A stretch of 64,000 bases of DNA, taken from the NCBI GenBank assembly GCA_017537745.1, contig JAFYKF010000011.1, forward strand, positions 100,779 to 164,778. The letters run 5' to 3'. The translations under genes and the position numbers were made by a program. Shown one piece after another: positions 16,301 through 24,226 of the stretch (position 1 is its first letter; each line of letters starts with the position of its first letter). The stretch is from Candidatus Saccharimonadota bacterium (GTDB lineage Bacteria; Patescibacteriota; Saccharimonadia; Saccharimonadales; Saccharimonadaceae). The notes below the pieces were generated by a model, which had not been told where the DNA came from, searched no databases, and was given only the letters and a program-made list of their open reading frames with translations.

Positions 16301-18187
16301 TTAGTTTTTCTTTTTAGACATCTTTTTTATATATTCACCCAGTTCTTTATCGGTACAAAAAACATAACACCCCTTCATGCCCCTAGTCATCAATACTTTA
16401 TATGTATTTTTTATAATTCGATCTGCTAACTCCTTAGCCCCCTCTGGATCCTTCGCCATCAATCCTTTCATCCCCTTAATAGATTGATCTGTGCTCGCAC
16501 GTTTTGAAACATCAGTAATTATTTTACCATCACGATATATCAAATCATCACCGATAATTACTCCAATATAGTCAAATTCAAGCCCCTGACAAGTGTGTAT
16601 ACATCCAGCCTCATTTATAGAATCCTTATTCACGGCCCAAGTTTGCGAGCTATCACCTAGATTCCAACTCATCCCAAATTGATATTCTGGAATCATGATA
16701 TCATAAAAGTTCGTATCATTTTTCCCATCCCTATCCCAATTCCAGCAATATCCAGCTACAATTCTCGACTTATTGTTGATTTTATTTTTTTCAATTATTG
16801 CCTCACGCATTTTATTTGGATCATCAAATACTCTAAAATCATATTCAAAATCCATATCATCGTAATTAGCTGTCTTTTTAATATCTAGTAAACTGTTTAA
16901 CCACGCTAAGTAACCGTCTGAACCATTACATCTAAACTGACTCTCAAGCTCAATCTTTTCATAATCTGCGCCAAGTTCTTCTGCATACCTTTTTATAGAA
17001 TCTATTGTACCTATATCTTTGACAGTTACACGCTGATCTTCATCAATCAAAAACACTGCACATTTAGCCGCATTGATTATCTCTTTAATTTGGTTTTCGC
17101 CCAGATTGCTCATAAAACCAGATTTTTCTGTCAGCCTATGGGCTTCATCCACAATCAAAGAATCAATCGCGTTTGTTTCAACATCGTAAAAATTTCCAGA
17201 GTTTTGAAAGCACGAGTCAATATATTCTTTTTTAAAATCCTCTCCCTGCAACTTCTTCTTGAAAACAGCTCTCGGAGTACCATTCCTCGTTACATAAAAA
17301 CTAGCTATATTACACTTTGTTAATTCCACAAACAAATTAATAGCAAGAACGGATTTTCCAGTTCCCGGTCCGCCTTCAATTACTAAAACTTTTTTCTTAC
17401 CAAATGCTACCGCATTTTTTGTCATACTCATAGCCGTTTCAAATGCGACTTTTTGATCATCAATCAGCACGAATTCTTGATTACCTTTCAACATTGGGCC
17501 CAGACAATCTTGCAAACTCTTTGACGGACGAAATCTCCCATGCTCAATTTCATAAATAGTTTTTCCATTATCACCTTTTTTAATATGTTTTGTAATAAAA
17601 TCTCGAAGCTTAGGAAAATCTTCTGCGCCAAACATCGGTGCTGCCTCGATATAATCTCTGTATTGTTCTGCTCGAATAGGATCATCTTCCTTAAAATGAT
17701 AATTATGTAAGAATGCGCATGGAACTAAATCCATTTTGCCATTCTGTGCAGCCTCATTATAGTGATCAATATAAACCGCATAGCTCATCGCTTGATAAGA
17801 AGGGTGTGCAGTCCGTCGCATTCCGCCACCAACATAAGTCTCAACTACAACACCATCTTCTGTATCTACCGATGAACAATCGCTCCACTGTTTAAGCTCA
17901 ATAATTACCACTGTTTTAGTATTATTATTATTCGAACCAGTTAGAATAAAATCAATTCGTTTTGATGTCGTCGGAATATTATATTCAATTGCAACACCAC
18001 AATCATCAGGTATATCATTAGAGTCTAAAATATTCCGCATATATTGCATAGAGTTTTGCCACGACTTCATTTGTGCTTCATTTGTTCTTCCAAAATACTT
18101 TTTATACTGTTCGTAAATCTTATTACAAATTAAGTTATCACGCACATCATTCATGAAATCAGTCTTCACGCCATCATATACAATCAT
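16301..18187 (-). CDS. DUF2075 (Schlafen group 3-type) SF1 helicase with an N-terminal PD-(D/E)XK nuclease-like domain
   Basis: RIDFIL...IIELKQW, GGPGTGKS, IVDEAHRL, QFRC, CIHTCQGLEFDY and LMTRGMKG. Confidence 0.88.
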   Translation of the reverse strand: MIVYDGVKTDFMNDVRDNLICNKIYEQYKKYFGRTNEAQMKSWQNSMQYMRNILDSNDIPDDCGVAIEYNIPTTSKRIDFILTGSNNNNTKTVVIIELKQWSDCSSVDTEDGVVVETYVGGGMRRTAHPSYQAMSYAVYIDHYNEAAQNGKMDLVPCAFLHNYHFKEDDPIRAEQYRDYIEAAPMFGAEDFPKLRDFITKHIKKGDNGKTIYEIEHGRFRPSKSLQDCLGPMLKGNQEFVLIDDQKVAFETAMSMTKNAVAFGKKKVLVIEGGPGTGKSVLAINLFVELTKCNIASFYVTRNGTPRAVFKKKLQGEDFKKEYIDSCFQNSGNFYDVETNAIDSLIVDEAHRLTEKSGFMSNLGENQIKEIINAAKCAVFLIDEDQRVTVKDIGTIDSIKRYAEELGADYEKIELESQFRCNGSDGYLAWLNSLLDIKKTANYDDMDFEYDFRVFDDPNKMREAIIEKNKINNKSRIVAGYCWNWDRDGKNDTNFYDIMIPEYQFGMSWNLGDSSQTWAVNKDSINEAGCIHTCQGLEFDYIGVIIGDDLIYRDGKIITDVSKRASTDQSIKGMKGLMAKDPEGAKELADRIIKNTYKVLMTRGMKGCYVFCTDKELGEYIKKMSKKKN

Positions 18188-18195
18188 ATTCCTCC

Positions 18196-18510
18196 TTACA
18201 ACTTATTATATTTTGTGCTTACACCTTTTGCTTTTTCTATTGGATATTTCTTTTTATTTTTTTCCAGTTTTTTTAATACTATTTCTTCCGGATCAACACC
18301 CAGTTTATCCGCCATCTGAAAACAATAGTTAAAAACATCCGCAAGCTCTTCACACACATCATCCATATTAAAATCATTATTCCACTGGAAGCATTCTAGC
18401 AGCTCACCAGCTTCTATCGAAATTGATTTAGCCAAATTTTCTGGACTATGAAATTGATCCCAATCCCGTTCCTCGTTAAACTTTTTTATCGCCTCTTGTA
18501 CTCTTTCCAT
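18196..18510 (-). CDS. MazG-like nucleotide pyrophosphohydrolase
   Basis: ERDWDQFHSPENLAKSISIEAGELLECFQW...EELADV...KKYP. Confidence 0.9.
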   Translation of the reverse strand: MERVQEAIKKFNEERDWDQFHSPENLAKSISIEAGELLECFQWNNDFNMDDVCEELADVFNYCFQMADKLGVDPEEIVLKKLEKNKKKYPIEKAKGVSTKYNKL

Positions 18511-18682
18511 ACCTATTATTATATATCGTCTTGTACCATTTGTCGAACTCATCCCAGTATTCTTTACTGTAAACTATATCCGAATAAAATAGCCCTCGTT
18601 CTTCAGAAAAAACATCAATCGCATTAATCCTATCTCTGCCAATGTACTTAACATGATTCTCATATTCCTGTAAAATGCTCAT
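18476..18682 (-). CDS. hypothetical small protein
   Basis: 68 aa with AGGAG RBS and a predicted promoter; overlaps the MazG start region. Confidence 0.55.
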   Translation of the reverse strand: MSILQEYENHVKYIGRDRINAIDVFSEERGLFYSDIVYSKEYWDEFDKWYKTIYNNRYGKSTRGDKKV

Positions 18683-18729
18683 GATACTCCTATTTTAATT
18701 TTGGATTATTTTAGGCACAACGTTACAAA

Positions 18730-18807
18730 AAATTCAACCCCCCACTATATATTTATAGTTAAAACAATTGGCTCAATCACGTCATTATATAGTGGGGGGT
18801 TGAATTT
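18730..18807. repeat. perfect 22-bp inverted repeat with a 34-bp spacer, carrying divergent -35 elements
   Basis: AAATTCAACCCCCCACTATATA (18730-18751) and TATATAGTGGGGGGTTGAATTT (18786-18807). Confidence 0.95.
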
Positions 18808-18835
18808 CTAACAGAGATATGCTAGATTAAAACCT

Positions 18836-19249
18836 ATGAAAATTACAGAGCTATCCCAAGTGTCTATAACCAAAATCGGTCACCTATACAAAAACGGCGT
18901 AAAAATTGAACCGCACGAAGAATCTACCGCTCGTTTTTTATTAAAATACGGGTTCATTATCGATGTAATAAAACCACAGAATACACCGAAGATACATAAT
19001 CCAGATTTTTTAATCAATGGCGTCATATGGGAAACAAAATCTCCAGAAGGAAAAAGCAGAAACACGATTGAACGAAAATTTCACGAAGCAAGTAGCCAAG
19101 CAGCTAATCTTATATTAGATCTACGAAGGATAAAACGCCCACCGATGATCGCCGAAAAAGAAGCAATAAAGGAATTTGAAAAATCTTCACGTATAAAGCA
19201 TATGATGCTTATCACAAAAAATAAAAAACTCCTTGACTATCATAAATAG
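18836..19249 (+). CDS. free-standing CdiA-C-terminal-like (tRNase-type) PD-(D/E)XK nuclease
   Basis: HE..TA..L, NPDFLING.IWETKSP, ASSQAANLILD and ...LLDY. The TPD/NPD...WExKSP pattern matches the CdiA_C-like family. Confidence 0.7.
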   Translation: MKITELSQVSITKIGHLYKNGVKIEPHEESTARFLLKYGFIIDVIKPQNTPKIHNPDFLINGVIWETKSPEGKSRNTIERKFHEASSQAANLILDLRRIKRPPMIAEKEAIKEFEKSSRIKHMMLITKNKKLLDYHK

Positions 19250-19261
19250 ATATAGTAAAAT
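19233..19261 (+). promoter_or_regulatory. sigma70 promoter embedded in the nuclease 3' end
   Basis: TTGACT (19233-19238), 17 nt, TAAAAT (19256-19261). Confidence 0.65.
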
Positions 19262-19267
19262 AGAACC

Positions 19268-19320
19268 AATGAGGGCGACCTACTGGTGGAATACAGATGG
19301 GCCAAGCCCTTATTTTTTAT
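19268..19320 (+). ncRNA. candidate ~50-nt small RNA (long irregular hairpin plus U-tract)
   Basis: AAUGAGGGC/GCCCUUAUU outer stem, CCUA-CUG/CAG-A-UGGG inner stem, GUGGAAUA loop, then UUUUUU; it starts about 7 nt after the promoter. Confidence 0.5.
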
Positions 19321-20030
19321 TTTCTCATTTTTCTTAAAATATCCTTTACCCCCGCCTCCACTCTATACGAATCACAAATTTTCGAAATCGTTTTATTAAA
19401 TGTCCAAACTGGCAGCCGCGAAGCCCGCAAATACCCAAGAGTCTCATCCGGATATTTAATAAAACACTCAGACAAAAGCCACGCAATCGCCATTCGCACA
19501 TAATATTCCTCACACTCACCCAAATTCTCCACCCTATCAAAAATCAACGCGAGATAATCTGGTTTCACATATGCACATTTTAGCATCACCAACCCTACTC
19601 GCACCGTATACTCTTCCCGAGCCCACAGCAATCCTTCCACTTTCAAATCCAAAAACTCATCCAAATGCTTCTGTATCACACGCCTTACCCCAGAACAAAA
19701 AACGTCACAATTCGCCCAATCGTCAATATAATCAATCTGAGAATCAAACCACTTGAGCATCTCGTCATATGGCAACTTGCAAATAATCATTCCCCGCGCC
19801 AAGACTTCTTCAAACGCCACCGGTGGAGTATTCAAAAACACATCATAATACTTACTTGGTATCAGATTCACCACAGACCTTACCGTAGGAATTTTCACCC
19901 CCACAAATGGCCTCTCACTTGGTATCCCCTTTTTCGCAAACACGAGATAATCGTCATCCGCATAAAAAGCTAACCGTTCCCTCAGCTCACCATAACTAGT
20001 AATCTCACCACCCCCTACATGCTTCACCAA
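19317..20030 (-). CDS. DNA alkylation repair protein (AlkD-like HEAT repeat)
   Basis: GVKIP.VR, IDDWANCD, EEYYVRMAIAWLLSECFIKYP and FNKTISKICDS. Confidence 0.85.
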   Translation of the reverse strand: MVKHVGGGEITSYGELRERLAFYADDDYLVFAKKGIPSERPFVGVKIPTVRSVVNLIPSKYYDVFLNTPPVAFEEVLARGMIICKLPYDEMLKWFDSQIDYIDDWANCDVFCSGVRRVIQKHLDEFLDLKVEGLLWAREEYTVRVGLVMLKCAYVKPDYLALIFDRVENLGECEEYYVRMAIAWLLSECFIKYPDETLGYLRASRLPVWTFNKTISKICDSYRVEAGVKDILRKMRK

Positions 20031-22051: not shown

Positions 22052-24226
22052 ATGAGAGTTACTCAACCAAATCCAATTGTAGATTTTATCACTTCAGGCG
22101 GTAACGGAAAACTCACCTTCGTTATCCCAGTTTATCAACGTAATTATTCTTGGGACAAAGACGATTGCGATCAACTATTCGAAGATGTCAAAAACAGTAT
22201 TCCAAAAGATGGAGAGCCAGAGAAATTCCATTACTTTGGCAATATCGTCTATGACGAGTCTGAGCGAGACCCCTTCACGGGCTACATTCAATATATCTTA
22301 ATCGACGGTCAACAAAGAATCACTTCCACGATGCTTTTTCTAGCAGCAATACGCGACGAAGAAGAAGACGACGCATTAAAAGACAGTATAGACGTAACAT
22401 ATCTCAAAAATCAAGATGCTCCAGAAGATTCCAAAGTCAAACTCAAACAAATCGAAATGGACCGCGAGACTTATGTCAAAATCATCAATCGTGATTTTGA
22501 AAATGTCAACAAAAGTTCAGCTGTATACAAAAACTATGACAGATTCCGTGCTCTCATTAAAAACGCCAAAGAAAAAGATGGTATCTCATCAAAAGATCTA
22601 ATGCTAGGTCTAAGAGCACTAAACGTCATCGTCATCGATTTGCAATCCAAACTTCCAGGCGCCGAATCAGCACAGGTCATTTTCGAAAGTATCAATGCTA
22701 CCGGTAAACCTCTAAGCGACGCCGACCTCCTCAGGAACTATTTACTATTTGAAATCGGCGTAGCAAAGCAAGAAACCTACTACAACGACTATTGGCTAAA
22801 AATTGAGCAAAACATCGGTAACTCCAATATCTCAGACTTTCTAAGACGATACCTTACACTTCGTTTGCACAGAGATGTTAAAAGCGGAACCGAATACAGA
22901 ACCTTTAAGAGAAATTACGAAAATTTCTTCACCGACGCCGAAAGTGCAATGCACGAACTCACCAAATATTCAGAATTCTACCAGTGGATTAAACAACCTG
23001 AAACCCTAGTAAAAACCGCACCCAAAACCGCAACACTTTTACGCGAAGCCGATTTACTACGCTTAGTCCCAGCTACACCGACCTTAATGTGGTTGCTAGA
23101 AAAAGTCCAAACCAACGAAATCGAATTTACCGAATTTAATAAAGTCTTAAAAGTTATCATGGACTGGTCATTTAGAGCTAGGGTAACCAACATCATTAAC
23201 ACTGGTGAAGTAGGCGAAATCTTAACTACGAAAATTTTGGACCTATTAGAAGATAAGCCCAATAATGACACAAGCTACAGCGATTACTTGAAATTTGAAT
23301 TATCGAATTACAGGGCACACGACATTTACGCTACAGACGAACAATTTATCGATGCATTCGTCAAATACAATTTCTACAAAAACTACGGACGTTATGTTCA
23401 AGAAAAATTGGCACAAGAATCCAGCAACGATAAACATATCATGTTTGAAAGTATTGAGCACATCTTGCCACAAACATTAGATCCATCAAAATGGCCAAAT
23501 GTTACTGTGGCCGACCATGCAATATGGGTCAACACAATTGGTAACCTAGTGCCAATGAACCAAAGCGATAACTCAGACAACTCTAACAATAGCATCGAAG
23601 AAAAAGCCAAAAACCTCACGATATCAGATTGGCTTCTAACTAGAGAAGCGTTGAATTATAAAACTGGTGATGATTGGACAATTGAATCTATCAAAAAACG
23701 TGGCGAAGCAATGGCCAAGAAAGCAATCAAAATTTGGGGCGGCCCACTCGAACGCACGCGTGATATTGAGGCGGTTAACAAAAACAAGCAAAATGAAAAC
23801 ATGGTTAAACTTCTAAACACTGTTAAGAACTTTTCACTTCCAAACATTATCCCATATCAGAATCAGGAACGGAATTCATACTATTTCAATTTTCACACTG
23901 AAGCCCTAAATGATTTGTATGGAATGAACACGGATAATGTCTATTGCTATTCAATAGTACTCGAAGACGGCATTCGCTGGGACCATGTAAACCTAACTTT
24001 GTGTAGCCACAAAAAAGATTCAATGACTAACGAAGCTTTACACACACAGAATACTATTATTGAAATGTCTAATAATAAACCGAAAGAGAATTGGCAATAC
24101 TTTAAGGCAATGCGCTGGGACAATACCGCAGAAGACGAGAGTGATGACGAAGAAAAACTACGCGAAGTATTATCTGAAATAATACCAGAATACGAACGAA
24201 AACTCAAAGAAGTCTTAGACGCCTAG
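22052..24226 (+). CDS. DUF262-DUF1524 (GmrSD-like) modification-dependent restriction protein with a C-terminal extension
   Basis: IPVYQRNYSW, IDGQQRITS, FESINATGKPL, SIEHILPQ and IGNL.PM...N. Confidence 0.9.
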   Translation: MRVTQPNPIVDFITSGGNGKLTFVIPVYQRNYSWDKDDCDQLFEDVKNSIPKDGEPEKFHYFGNIVYDESERDPFTGYIQYILIDGQQRITSTMLFLAAIRDEEEDDALKDSIDVTYLKNQDAPEDSKVKLKQIEMDRETYVKIINRDFENVNKSSAVYKNYDRFRALIKNAKEKDGISSKDLMLGLRALNVIVIDLQSKLPGAESAQVIFESINATGKPLSDADLLRNYLLFEIGVAKQETYYNDYWLKIEQNIGNSNISDFLRRYLTLRLHRDVKSGTEYRTFKRNYENFFTDAESAMHELTKYSEFYQWIKQPETLVKTAPKTATLLREADLLRLVPATPTLMWLLEKVQTNEIEFTEFNKVLKVIMDWSFRARVTNIINTGEVGEILTTKILDLLEDKPNNDTSYSDYLKFELSNYRAHDIYATDEQFIDAFVKYNFYKNYGRYVQEKLAQESSNDKHIMFESIEHILPQTLDPSKWPNVTVADHAIWVNTIGNLVPMNQSDNSDNSNNSIEEKAKNLTISDWLLTREALNYKTGDDWTIESIKKRGEAMAKKAIKIWGGPLERTRDIEAVNKNKQNENMVKLLNTVKNFSLPNIIPYQNQERNSYYFNFHTEALNDLYGMNTDNVYCYSIVLEDGIRWDHVNLTLCSHKKDSMTNEALHTQNTIIEMSNNKPKENWQYFKAMRWDNTAEDESDDEEKLREVLSEIIPEYERKLKEVLDA

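Follow-up and report, generated by a model that had tools for sequence, protein, structure and literature searches.

In the 838-kb genome assembly of a Saccharibacteria bacterium, we examined a 64,000-nt stretch of contig JAFYKF010000011.1 (referred to below as the window), in which the gene of a free-standing 137-residue nuclease of the CdiA_C family is followed by a predicted gene for a hairpin RNA of about 50 nt. The promoter that would drive this RNA begins within the last codons of the nuclease gene. The combination of nuclease, promoter and hairpin was also found in other bacteria, covering at least four phyla. We propose that the two genes represent a type III-like toxin/RNA-antitoxin pair, in which a tRNase-type toxin would be neutralized by direct binding of its cognate hairpin RNA, and consider this slightly more probable than improbable. 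Transcription of the RNA, toxicity of the nuclease, binding between the two, neutralization and its trigger are what we infer from the comparisons described below. The coordinates of all features are listed in Table 1.

Identification of a CdiA_C nuclease without an immunity gene

The initial annotation of this DNA had described a stand-alone nuclease (NPDF...WETKSP) that lacks a signal peptide and has no immunity gene next to it. The 137-residue open reading frame (ORF) was found as described. Its N-terminus (MKITELSQVSITKIGHLYKNG) contains no hydrophobic, signal-like stretch, and only 67 nt separate its stop codon from that of the convergent AlkD-like gene, which leaves no room for an immunity ORF on the 3' side. 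The sole Pfam match of the protein was CdiA_C (PF18451), which covered residues 55-131 with a score of 57.7 bits (cut-off 26.6) and an E-value of 1.3e-15. None of the PADLOC and NCBIfam models matched the nuclease.

A weak sequence match was obtained with chain A of PDB 4G6V, in which D57 and E66 of our protein align with the PD and D residues. The AlphaFold2 model of the nuclease, calculated with 18 homologues, displayed a pLDDT of 90.6 and a pTM of 0.85. When this model was used as a Foldseek query, the top match was again 4g6v_A (E-value 9.5e-6, probability 1.00, TM 0.68/0.70), with 136 aligned columns that span the whole chain. As the runner-up had an E-value of 7e-3, 4g6v_A was the only significant structural neighbour. 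Among 30 diverse relatives, D57, E66, K68 and Q88 are invariant and E28 is nearly so; E28, D57, E66 and K68, together with Q88, are the probable catalytic-type residues. Sequence, modelled fold and predicted active-site residues all place the protein in the CdiA_C family, with a putative tRNase activity. A delivery domain or CdiA-type exoprotein part was not found in the ORF, which is 137 residues long and is spanned entirely by the fold match. The relatives of the nuclease are likewise nearly all 120-145 residues in length.

The protein of PDB 4G6V, the CdiA-CT of Burkholderia pseudomallei 1026b, is a PD-(D/E)xK tRNase. It forms a 1:1 complex with tRNA and cleaves the acceptor stem of tRNA-Ala; its immunity protein CdiI contacts and plugs the active site (PMC9086364).

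Promoter and hairpin behind the nuclease gene

The nuclease gene ends with the codons CTT GAC TAT CAT AAA TAG (L-D-Y-H-K-stop). As the initial annotation had noticed, the L-D-Y codons supply the hexamer TTGACT, which is followed by exactly 17 nt and TAAAAT, and a hairpin with a U-run begins shortly thereafter. We found both the promoter and the hairpin at these sites. The lower stem of the hairpin (P1) is formed by 19271-19276 with 19306-19311 and is extended by pairing of 19268-19270 with 19312-19314. An asymmetric internal loop follows, with GA (19277-19278) opposite CCAA (19302-19305), and the upper stem (P2) consists of 19279-19285 paired with 19294-19301, with a bulged A at 19297. The apical loop at 19286-19293 reads GUGGAAUA. 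The minimum free energy was −19.8 to −25 kcal/mol (z = −3.9), and none of 200 shuffled sequences folded equally well. The covariance model R1, whose E-values are rough, matched the window at 19267-19317 with 55.8 bits and an E-value of 1e-14.

No known RNA family was recognized. The 4227 covariance models of Rfam gave nothing at 19260-19320, even at E<=1, and the RNAs of 15 other loci had no match at the gathering score. We considered that the GA/CCAA loop might be a K-turn, and dropped this reading, as the 3' strand lacks the second GA and so departs from the K-turn consensus. A likeness to the tRNA T-arm (GG-UUAAGU-CC) is limited to a subset of the class-1 RNAs described below and is non-canonical; we retain it only as a speculative 'substrate mimic'.

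Alternatively, the hairpin might be nothing more than an intrinsic terminator that serves both the nuclease gene and the AlkD-like gene, with the promoter match due to chance. The hairpin lies between convergent genes, with an A-rich stretch before and a U-run after it, and it probably does also end the AlkD-like transcript, because the AlkD-like stop codon overlaps the U-run. A terminator scan had missed it because its loop is longer than the limit of the scan. In addition, promoter-like sites are common in the AT-rich window; 10 were found in 2.5 kb of it, where 7.1 are expected. Viewed in the window alone, the promoter match is within chance, and its significance comes from the comparison with relatives.

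Conservation of promoter and hairpin among relatives

The genome of the window contains five intact nuclease paralogues that are 31-50% identical, along with one truncated copy. In all six, the last codons contain a −35 box, with a −10 box beyond a 17-nt spacer and then a hairpin. The truncated copy, a nuclease fragment of 71 residues (C8:128722-128877, the upstream part of locus L017), has kept both promoter and RNA intact. One more such RNA gene, the seventh (L172, C8:44538-44589), is an orphan with no nuclease remnant, and consists of TTGAAT-17-TATATT, a hairpin and a T6 run. The seven RNAs are all distinct, and each matches its protein subfamily. The presence of seven distinct, subfamily-matched RNAs in one genome fits the view of cognate pairs.

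Among 401 Saccharimonadia genomes, 78 harbour the nuclease, with up to 9 copies each and nearly always as ORFs of 125-145 residues. We extracted and compared the downstream DNA of 48 non-redundant relatives. The −35 box was found at −11, −14, −17, −20 or −23 relative to the stop codon and invariably kept one codon phase (xTT GAy), corresponding to [LIV][DE] at the C-terminus of the nuclease. The RNA promoters mostly display 10-12 of 12 matches to the consensus, a stable hairpin starts a few nucleotides further on, and a conserved A is located exactly 7 nt past the −10 box in both orientations of the RNA gene. With fixed criteria, promoter plus hairpin was detected behind 32 of 46 nuclease ORFs and behind only 4 of 311 other ORFs from the same loci. 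In an independent set, collected with a back-translated protein pattern, the numbers were 88 of 111 nuclease ORFs and 87 of 1545 controls. The promoter and hairpin thresholds are arbitrary, with identical thresholds applied to the control ORFs. Among the 88 passing loci, the RNA gene is on the same strand as the nuclease gene in 78 and convergent in 10.

The initial annotation had proposed to test whether promoter and hairpin are conserved behind homologues. This proved to be the case in both sets, across phyla and with compensatory changes in the stems. Its proposal that a C-terminal [LIV]D codon pair provides the −35 box also stands in a slightly wider form, as [LIV][DE] in a fixed phase, and LD is absent from loci in which the RNA gene is inverted (see below).

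Evidence for an RNA gene

We then examined the RNAs as structured molecules. Among relatives with protein identities of 45-60%, P1 and the internal loop (GAGGGCGAC...GCCAAGCCCUC) hardly vary; in alignment A3 the invariance of P1 is partly imposed by the search pattern, which left P2 free. In 47 distinct RNAs of the class to which we refer as class 1, 95.7% of the cells in the paired columns can pair, compared with 30-60% when the 3' partner is slid. Changes on both sides were observed for 10 of the 13 pairs, and none of 500 shuffles reached the real alignment. Up to 6 pair types occur per position in P2. There are also many G-U pairs, which are valid solely on the promoter-sense strand. A second RNA class behaved similarly, with 87.9% of cells paired against 29-59% when slid and double changes at 9 of 13 pairs.

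Several loci allow the RNA gene to be separated from transcription termination. In L001, L014, L017, L025, L021 and L027, a separate terminator is present on the 3' side of the hairpin. In L002, L004 and L007, the RNA gene is inverted and carries its own TTGNNN-17-TATAAT in non-coding DNA; the C-terminus of the nuclease in these loci is EY or YY rather than LD. Convergent RNA genes were also found in distant subfamilies from other Patescibacteria classes (L176-L185). Tandem duplicates of the RNA occur in L029, L111 and L114, and two copies in L023; such doubling is occasional, and the RNA is usually a single hairpin. Because of the separate terminators and of the inverted copies with their own promoter, the hairpin has to be regarded as an RNA gene and not merely as a terminator. 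The initial annotation had named a terminator shared with the AlkD-like gene as the alternative that would undo its reading. As the hairpin sequence and promoter persist behind relatives even though the genes further downstream are unrelated, and as other loci have separate terminators or inverted, orphan or tandem copies, we consider this alternative extremely improbable.

An apical loop motif, UGGAU(U/A) or UGNAYU closed by a C-G pair, recurs across otherwise dissimilar RNA classes. It was seen in the window (19286-19293) and in L012, L017, L041, L011, L047 and L172, and hints at either common ancestry or a common protein contact. In class 3 RNAs, T20, G21, A23 and T25 are invariant.

RNA genes that lack a nuclease

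We searched the class-1 RNA pattern in 185,579 genomes. There were 61 matches in low-GC contigs of the Saccharibacteria type, and 40 of these were located directly behind a nuclease ORF, typically at a distance of 22 nt. High-GC genomes gave 62 chance matches, not one of them directly behind a nuclease ORF. The 21 unlinked RNA matches correspond to contig ends, to sites with nuclease remnants at L165, L141, L124 and L059, or to true orphans at L099, L113, L117 and L125. The nuclease is decayed or deleted while the RNA gene is intact in L005, L013, L165, L141, L124 and L059, and in the upstream fragment of L017. True orphan RNA genes with intact promoters were found in L099, L113, L117 and L125, in addition to L172 of the window's own genome. 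Conversely, nearly every intact nuclease gene that we examined has an RNA. The RNA thus seems to outlive the nuclease, an asymmetry that would be expected of an antidote.

These results also bear on the possibility that the RNA is an obligatory cofactor, an activator or a specificity subunit, in which case the two products would together make up a small ribonucleoprotein enzyme, and not a toxin with its inhibitor. The tight linkage of the genes, the joint diversification of RNA class and protein subfamily, the presence of an RNA with nearly every nuclease, and an RNA promoter strong enough for a stoichiometric partner would all suit such an enzyme. However, intact RNA genes with consensus promoters that outlast a lost nuclease, or exist as orphans, are not expected of a cofactor. 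The variable P2 is kept paired by compensatory changes and therefore offers no free guide. Moreover, characterized relatives such as CdiA-CT 1026b require no RNA cofactor (PMC9086364). We regard a cofactor role as unlikely. As for a guide in general, the region in which the RNAs vary is held in a base-paired stem and is not a free segment; the evidence, although indirect, favours an antitoxin over a guide.

Search for a protein partner or antisense pairing

In order to look for a conserved protein partner, all ORFs within 1.5 kb of the 48 loci were clustered. No such partner was found; the best cluster, present at 10 of the 48 loci, consists of Fib_succ-type surface proteins. The AlkD-like gene is not conserved beside the homologues, and the genes downstream of the relatives are unrelated.

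The RNA could instead act on the nuclease mRNA, either as a type I-like antisense RNA or by controlling stability or translation from the 3' end. In the convergent loci (L002, L004, L007 and L176-L185), the RNA or its U-tract does overlap the 3' end of the toxin gene, and this layout resembles that of txpA/RatA and bsrG/SR4, which are 3'-overlapping type I systems. However, if the minority of convergent loci is set aside, the RNA of the predominant tandem layout is in the sense orientation, and is not antisense as in a type I system. Nor was complementarity between cognate RNA and mRNA found; the cognate duplex had a median rank of 16-17 among 35. The duplex energies with the 5' region of the toxin mRNA were −19.65 kcal/mol for cognate and −18.69 kcal/mol for non-cognate pairs, and those with the whole coding sequence were −28.25 and −27.85 kcal/mol, respectively. 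Since the nuclease mRNAs look leaderless (see below), there is no 5' untranslated region or Shine-Dalgarno sequence for the RNA to target. Finally, the RNA gene can take either orientation with nearly the same RNA sequence, as would be expected if the RNA acted in trans through its structure and independently of orientation. Protein binding would be the simplest form of such an action, and we judge control of the mRNA to be quite unlikely.

Upstream region of the nuclease gene

The start codon of the nuclease gene in the window lies only 7 nt past a −10 box (TAGATT), and its mRNA is therefore probably leaderless. In the upstream regions of loci L001-L049, a −10-like box was present 5-9 nt ahead of the start codon in 23 of 43 nuclease genes, compared with 26 of 159 control ORFs. 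A Shine-Dalgarno-like motif was present in 2 of 43 and 34 of 159, respectively. Leaderless mRNAs appear to be common to the relatives. A GGGGG-TTGA element similar to that of the window was also observed upstream of L002, L005, L010, L016, L017, L041, L021 and L027.

We also noted a perfect 22-bp inverted repeat, 18730-18751 (AAATTCAACCCCCCACTATATA) and 18786-18807 (TATATAGTGGGGGGTTGAATTT), with a 34-bp spacer. The G6 run and the −35 box (TTGAAT) from which the nuclease would be transcribed lie in its right arm, and its left arm provides a mirror-image −35 box for a divergent operon that consists of a 68-residue ORF and the MazG-like gene. Given its recurrence, the GGGGG-TTGA element might serve the module as an operator or promoter element. 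Weak, sub-threshold Rfam matches at 18704-18871 were attributed to this palindrome and not to the small RNA.

Table 1. Features of the module and its surroundings, with positions in the window.
Feature	Position	Strand	Description
Schlafen group 3 / DUF2075 helicase	16301-18187	-	628 residues; PADLOC matches PDC-S41, AbiO, Nhi
MazG-like pyrophosphohydrolase	18196-18552	-	defence-island context
Nuclease promoter	18794-18828	+	G6 18794-18799; −35 TTGAAT 18800-18805; 17-nt spacer; −10 TAGATT 18823-18828
Nuclease ORF (putative toxin)	18836-19249	+	137 residues, contains NPDF...WETKSP; PD-(D/E)xK of CdiA-CT(Bp1026b) / Pfam CdiA_C family
Small-RNA promoter	19233-19261	+	−35 TTGACT 19233-19238; 17-nt spacer; −10 TAAAAT 19256-19261
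Small RNA (predicted), about 50 nt	19268-19318	+	hairpin 19268-19314; T6 19313-19318; predicted start A19268
AlkD-like DNA-alkylation-repair gene	19317-20030	-	convergent neighbour, outside the module; Pfam PF08713, E 5.8e-11
GmrSD/HEC-06-type (DUF262-like) enzyme	22052-24226	+	724 residues; defence-island context

Distribution and genomic context

A profile built from 30 relatives matched 3105 protein clusters (50% identity) with a cut-off of E<=1e-3; with E<=1e-10 the number was 1186. Almost all of these proteins are 120-140 residues long. The complete module was found in Lachnospiraceae, including the isolates XBB2008, AC2028 and Pseudobutyrivibrio xylanivorans DSM 14809, in Clostridiales, in Elusimicrobiota / Endomicrobia, in Nomurabacteria and Kaiserbacteria, and in the Actinomycetota genera Schaalia, Actinomyces and Promicromonospora. 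The RNA classes track the protein subfamilies across these phyla. An RNA of the L017 type is common to Saccharibacteria and Lachnospiraceae, and one of the GGCAG...CAGCCCA type is common to Patescibacteria and Actinomycetota.

The nuclease domain is also present in phage proteins. In Actinomyces sp. HMSC035G02 and Schaalia sp. ORNL0103 (L233, 4872-6239, and L192), a MuF-like head protein (phrog_1522) carries CdiA_C as its C-terminal domain. The gene order in these prophage head modules is terminase, portal, MuF-nuclease, scaffold and capsid, and the 168-nt gap behind the MuF-nuclease gene contains a GC-rich hairpin but no immunity ORF. PHROG 13257 contains the nuclease domain, and MuF polymorphic toxins with a 1026b-type tRNase domain have been listed by Jamet et al. 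2017 (PMC5576092). A tblastn search of phage and plasmid collections with the nuclease gave no match. On contig C1 (about 155 kb) of Saccharibacteria genome G041, we observed an ORF of at least 650 residues (L179) with an N-terminal CdiA_C-like domain and a MuF / SPP1 gp7-type part (MHPNCRS), a domain order that is the reverse of that in the Actinomyces MuF-nuclease protein.

Judging from its neighbours, the module of the window sits in a defence island (Table 1). Other loci have different surroundings. Fibrobacter-type surface genes, whose products end with ...WSS...(V/I)RC(V/L), were found at L004, L005, L007, L008, L010, L011, L017, L021, L027 and L039. Reverse-transcriptase-like genes were found near the module in 4 of the 48 loci (L002, L003, L010 and L024). 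These two kinds of neighbour suggest that modules share variable islands with diversity-generating retroelements. On one Saccharibacteria contig, a LOOT RNA (Rfam RF03000, 82.6 bits; L043, 2968-3084 on the minus strand) is located about 1.2 kb from the module. tRNA genes adjoin the modules in L012, L016 and L019.

With many loci beside tRNA genes or in variable islands, and with a copy number of the nuclease that varies from 0 to 9 per genome, it could be asked whether nuclease and hairpin are a selfish cassette that moves as a unit, in which the hairpin would be recognized or recombined as DNA and the promoter boxes would be incidental. PD-(D/E)xK enzymes are indeed often DNases. A site in DNA, however, would not account for the many G-U pairs that function on one RNA strand only, nor for −35 and −10 boxes that keep their 17-nt spacing and the fixed 7 nt to the conserved A in both orientations. 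The closest solved relative of the nuclease is, moreover, a tRNase. We consider a selfish cassette of this kind very unlikely.

Proposed mechanism

Under the type III-like toxin-antitoxin reading, the modest promoter upstream of the nuclease gene would produce a probably leaderless mRNA, and this would be translated into a cytoplasmic RNase toxin with the CdiA-CT(Bp1026b) fold. The near-consensus promoter in the last codons would produce an excess of the RNA of about 50 nt, with P1 and P2 stacked around the GA / CCAA loop. The RNA would bind and block its cognate nuclease in place of CdiI, and may do so by mimicking a structured RNA substrate that cannot be cleaved. In the tandem layout the toxin mRNA would end in the same hairpin, so that each toxin transcript would carry one copy of the RNA. 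Shut-off of transcription or decay of the RNA, as might happen when a phage infects the cell, would free the nuclease and lead to arrest of the cell.

Several points weigh against this mechanism. The asymmetry between surviving RNAs and lost nucleases is also compatible with an obligatory RNA cofactor, and where the two genes converge, the RNA might conceivably act as antisense to the 3' end of the toxin mRNA. A lone hairpin encoded downstream of the toxin gene also differs from the known type III antitoxins, which are tandem repeats upstream of the toxin gene that are processed by the toxin. In addition, 20-30% of the relatives fail the promoter-plus-hairpin filter.

The wider proposal is that of a hitherto unrecognized and widespread toxin-immunity class, in which a single hairpin RNA of about 45-50 nt with its own promoter, possibly a substrate mimic, would take the place of a protein and serve as the cognate immunity factor of nucleases of the CdiA-CT 1026b type. 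These would comprise free-standing enzymes, with up to 9 copies per genome in Saccharibacteria and others in Lachnospiraceae, Elusimicrobiota and Actinomycetota, as well as those at the end of phage MuF toxins. For this proposal we find the arguments on the two sides evenly balanced.

Comparison with known systems

The nuclease of the window shares its family, its fold, the PD-(D/E)xK-type site and the conserved E...PD...E/D residues with CdiA-CT(II) 1026b (PDB 4G6V). It differs in being a free-standing, putatively cytoplasmic protein of 137 residues, without a CdiA delivery region and with the classical lysine of an E-x-K motif. In the place usually occupied by the immunity gene there is a hairpin RNA with its own predicted promoter, and no CdiI-like gene. 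Since both the delivery region and CdiI are missing, the module is not a contact-dependent growth inhibition (CDI) system. In the Actinomyces and Schaalia prophages, the same nuclease domain is the C-terminal part of a MuF-like protein encoded between the portal and scaffold genes, whereas the protein of the window has no MuF part and its gene is not in a prophage head module.

With the type III systems ToxIN, CptIN and TenpIN, the module has in common a nuclease gene beside a predicted structured non-coding RNA and a position in a defence island. Further likenesses, which we propose, would be the specificity of cognate pairs and an RNA in excess that neutralizes the toxin by direct binding. 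Known type III antitoxins are upstream tandem repeats that are co-transcribed with the toxin and processed by it, with a terminator between repeats and toxin. In contrast, the RNA described here is usually single, lies downstream, has its own promoter in the toxin codons and can be found in either orientation. The toxin has the PD-(D/E)xK fold, not that of ToxN/AbiQ, CptN or TenpN, and gave no PADLOC match. As both the toxin fold and the upstream tandem repeats differ, we describe the module as type III-like and not as a member of type III.

In the placement of the RNA, the module further resembles txpA/RatA and bsrG/SR4, as well as MicL and DapZ, which are small RNAs expressed from promoters inside the 3' ends of genes. 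In these cases a gene for a small RNA is located at the 3' end of another gene, with its promoter within the coding sequence, and the convergent variants of our module overlap the toxin gene. The toxins of txpA and bsrG are small membrane peptides, while the toxin described here would be a soluble 137-residue nuclease, and the usual layout is sense. In the literature on toxin-antitoxin systems or small RNAs of Saccharibacteria and Patescibacteria, on RNA antitoxins of CdiA and on PF18451, we found no description of the pairing.

To our knowledge, nuclease domains of polymorphic toxin and CDI systems are thought to be neutralized only by cognate immunity proteins, and only three related type III families are known to have RNA antitoxins directed at a toxin protein. 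If our proposal is correct, the module would bring a second, unrelated toxin fold under the control of RNA, with a minimal partner of a single hairpin, and the promoter of this partner would be written into the last codons of the toxin itself, in a group with thousands of members. It would supply compact and naturally orthogonal protein-RNA pairs, several of them in one genome. Cultured carriers such as Pseudobutyrivibrio xylanivorans DSM 14809, Lachnospiraceae XBB2008 and AC2028, and Schaalia sp. ORNL0103 make the module open to experiment. For Saccharibacteria, it would mean that very small genomes carry what is likely an abortive-infection module. More generally, the notion of an immunity gene would have to be widened, and many toxin domains that now appear to be orphans would be explained.

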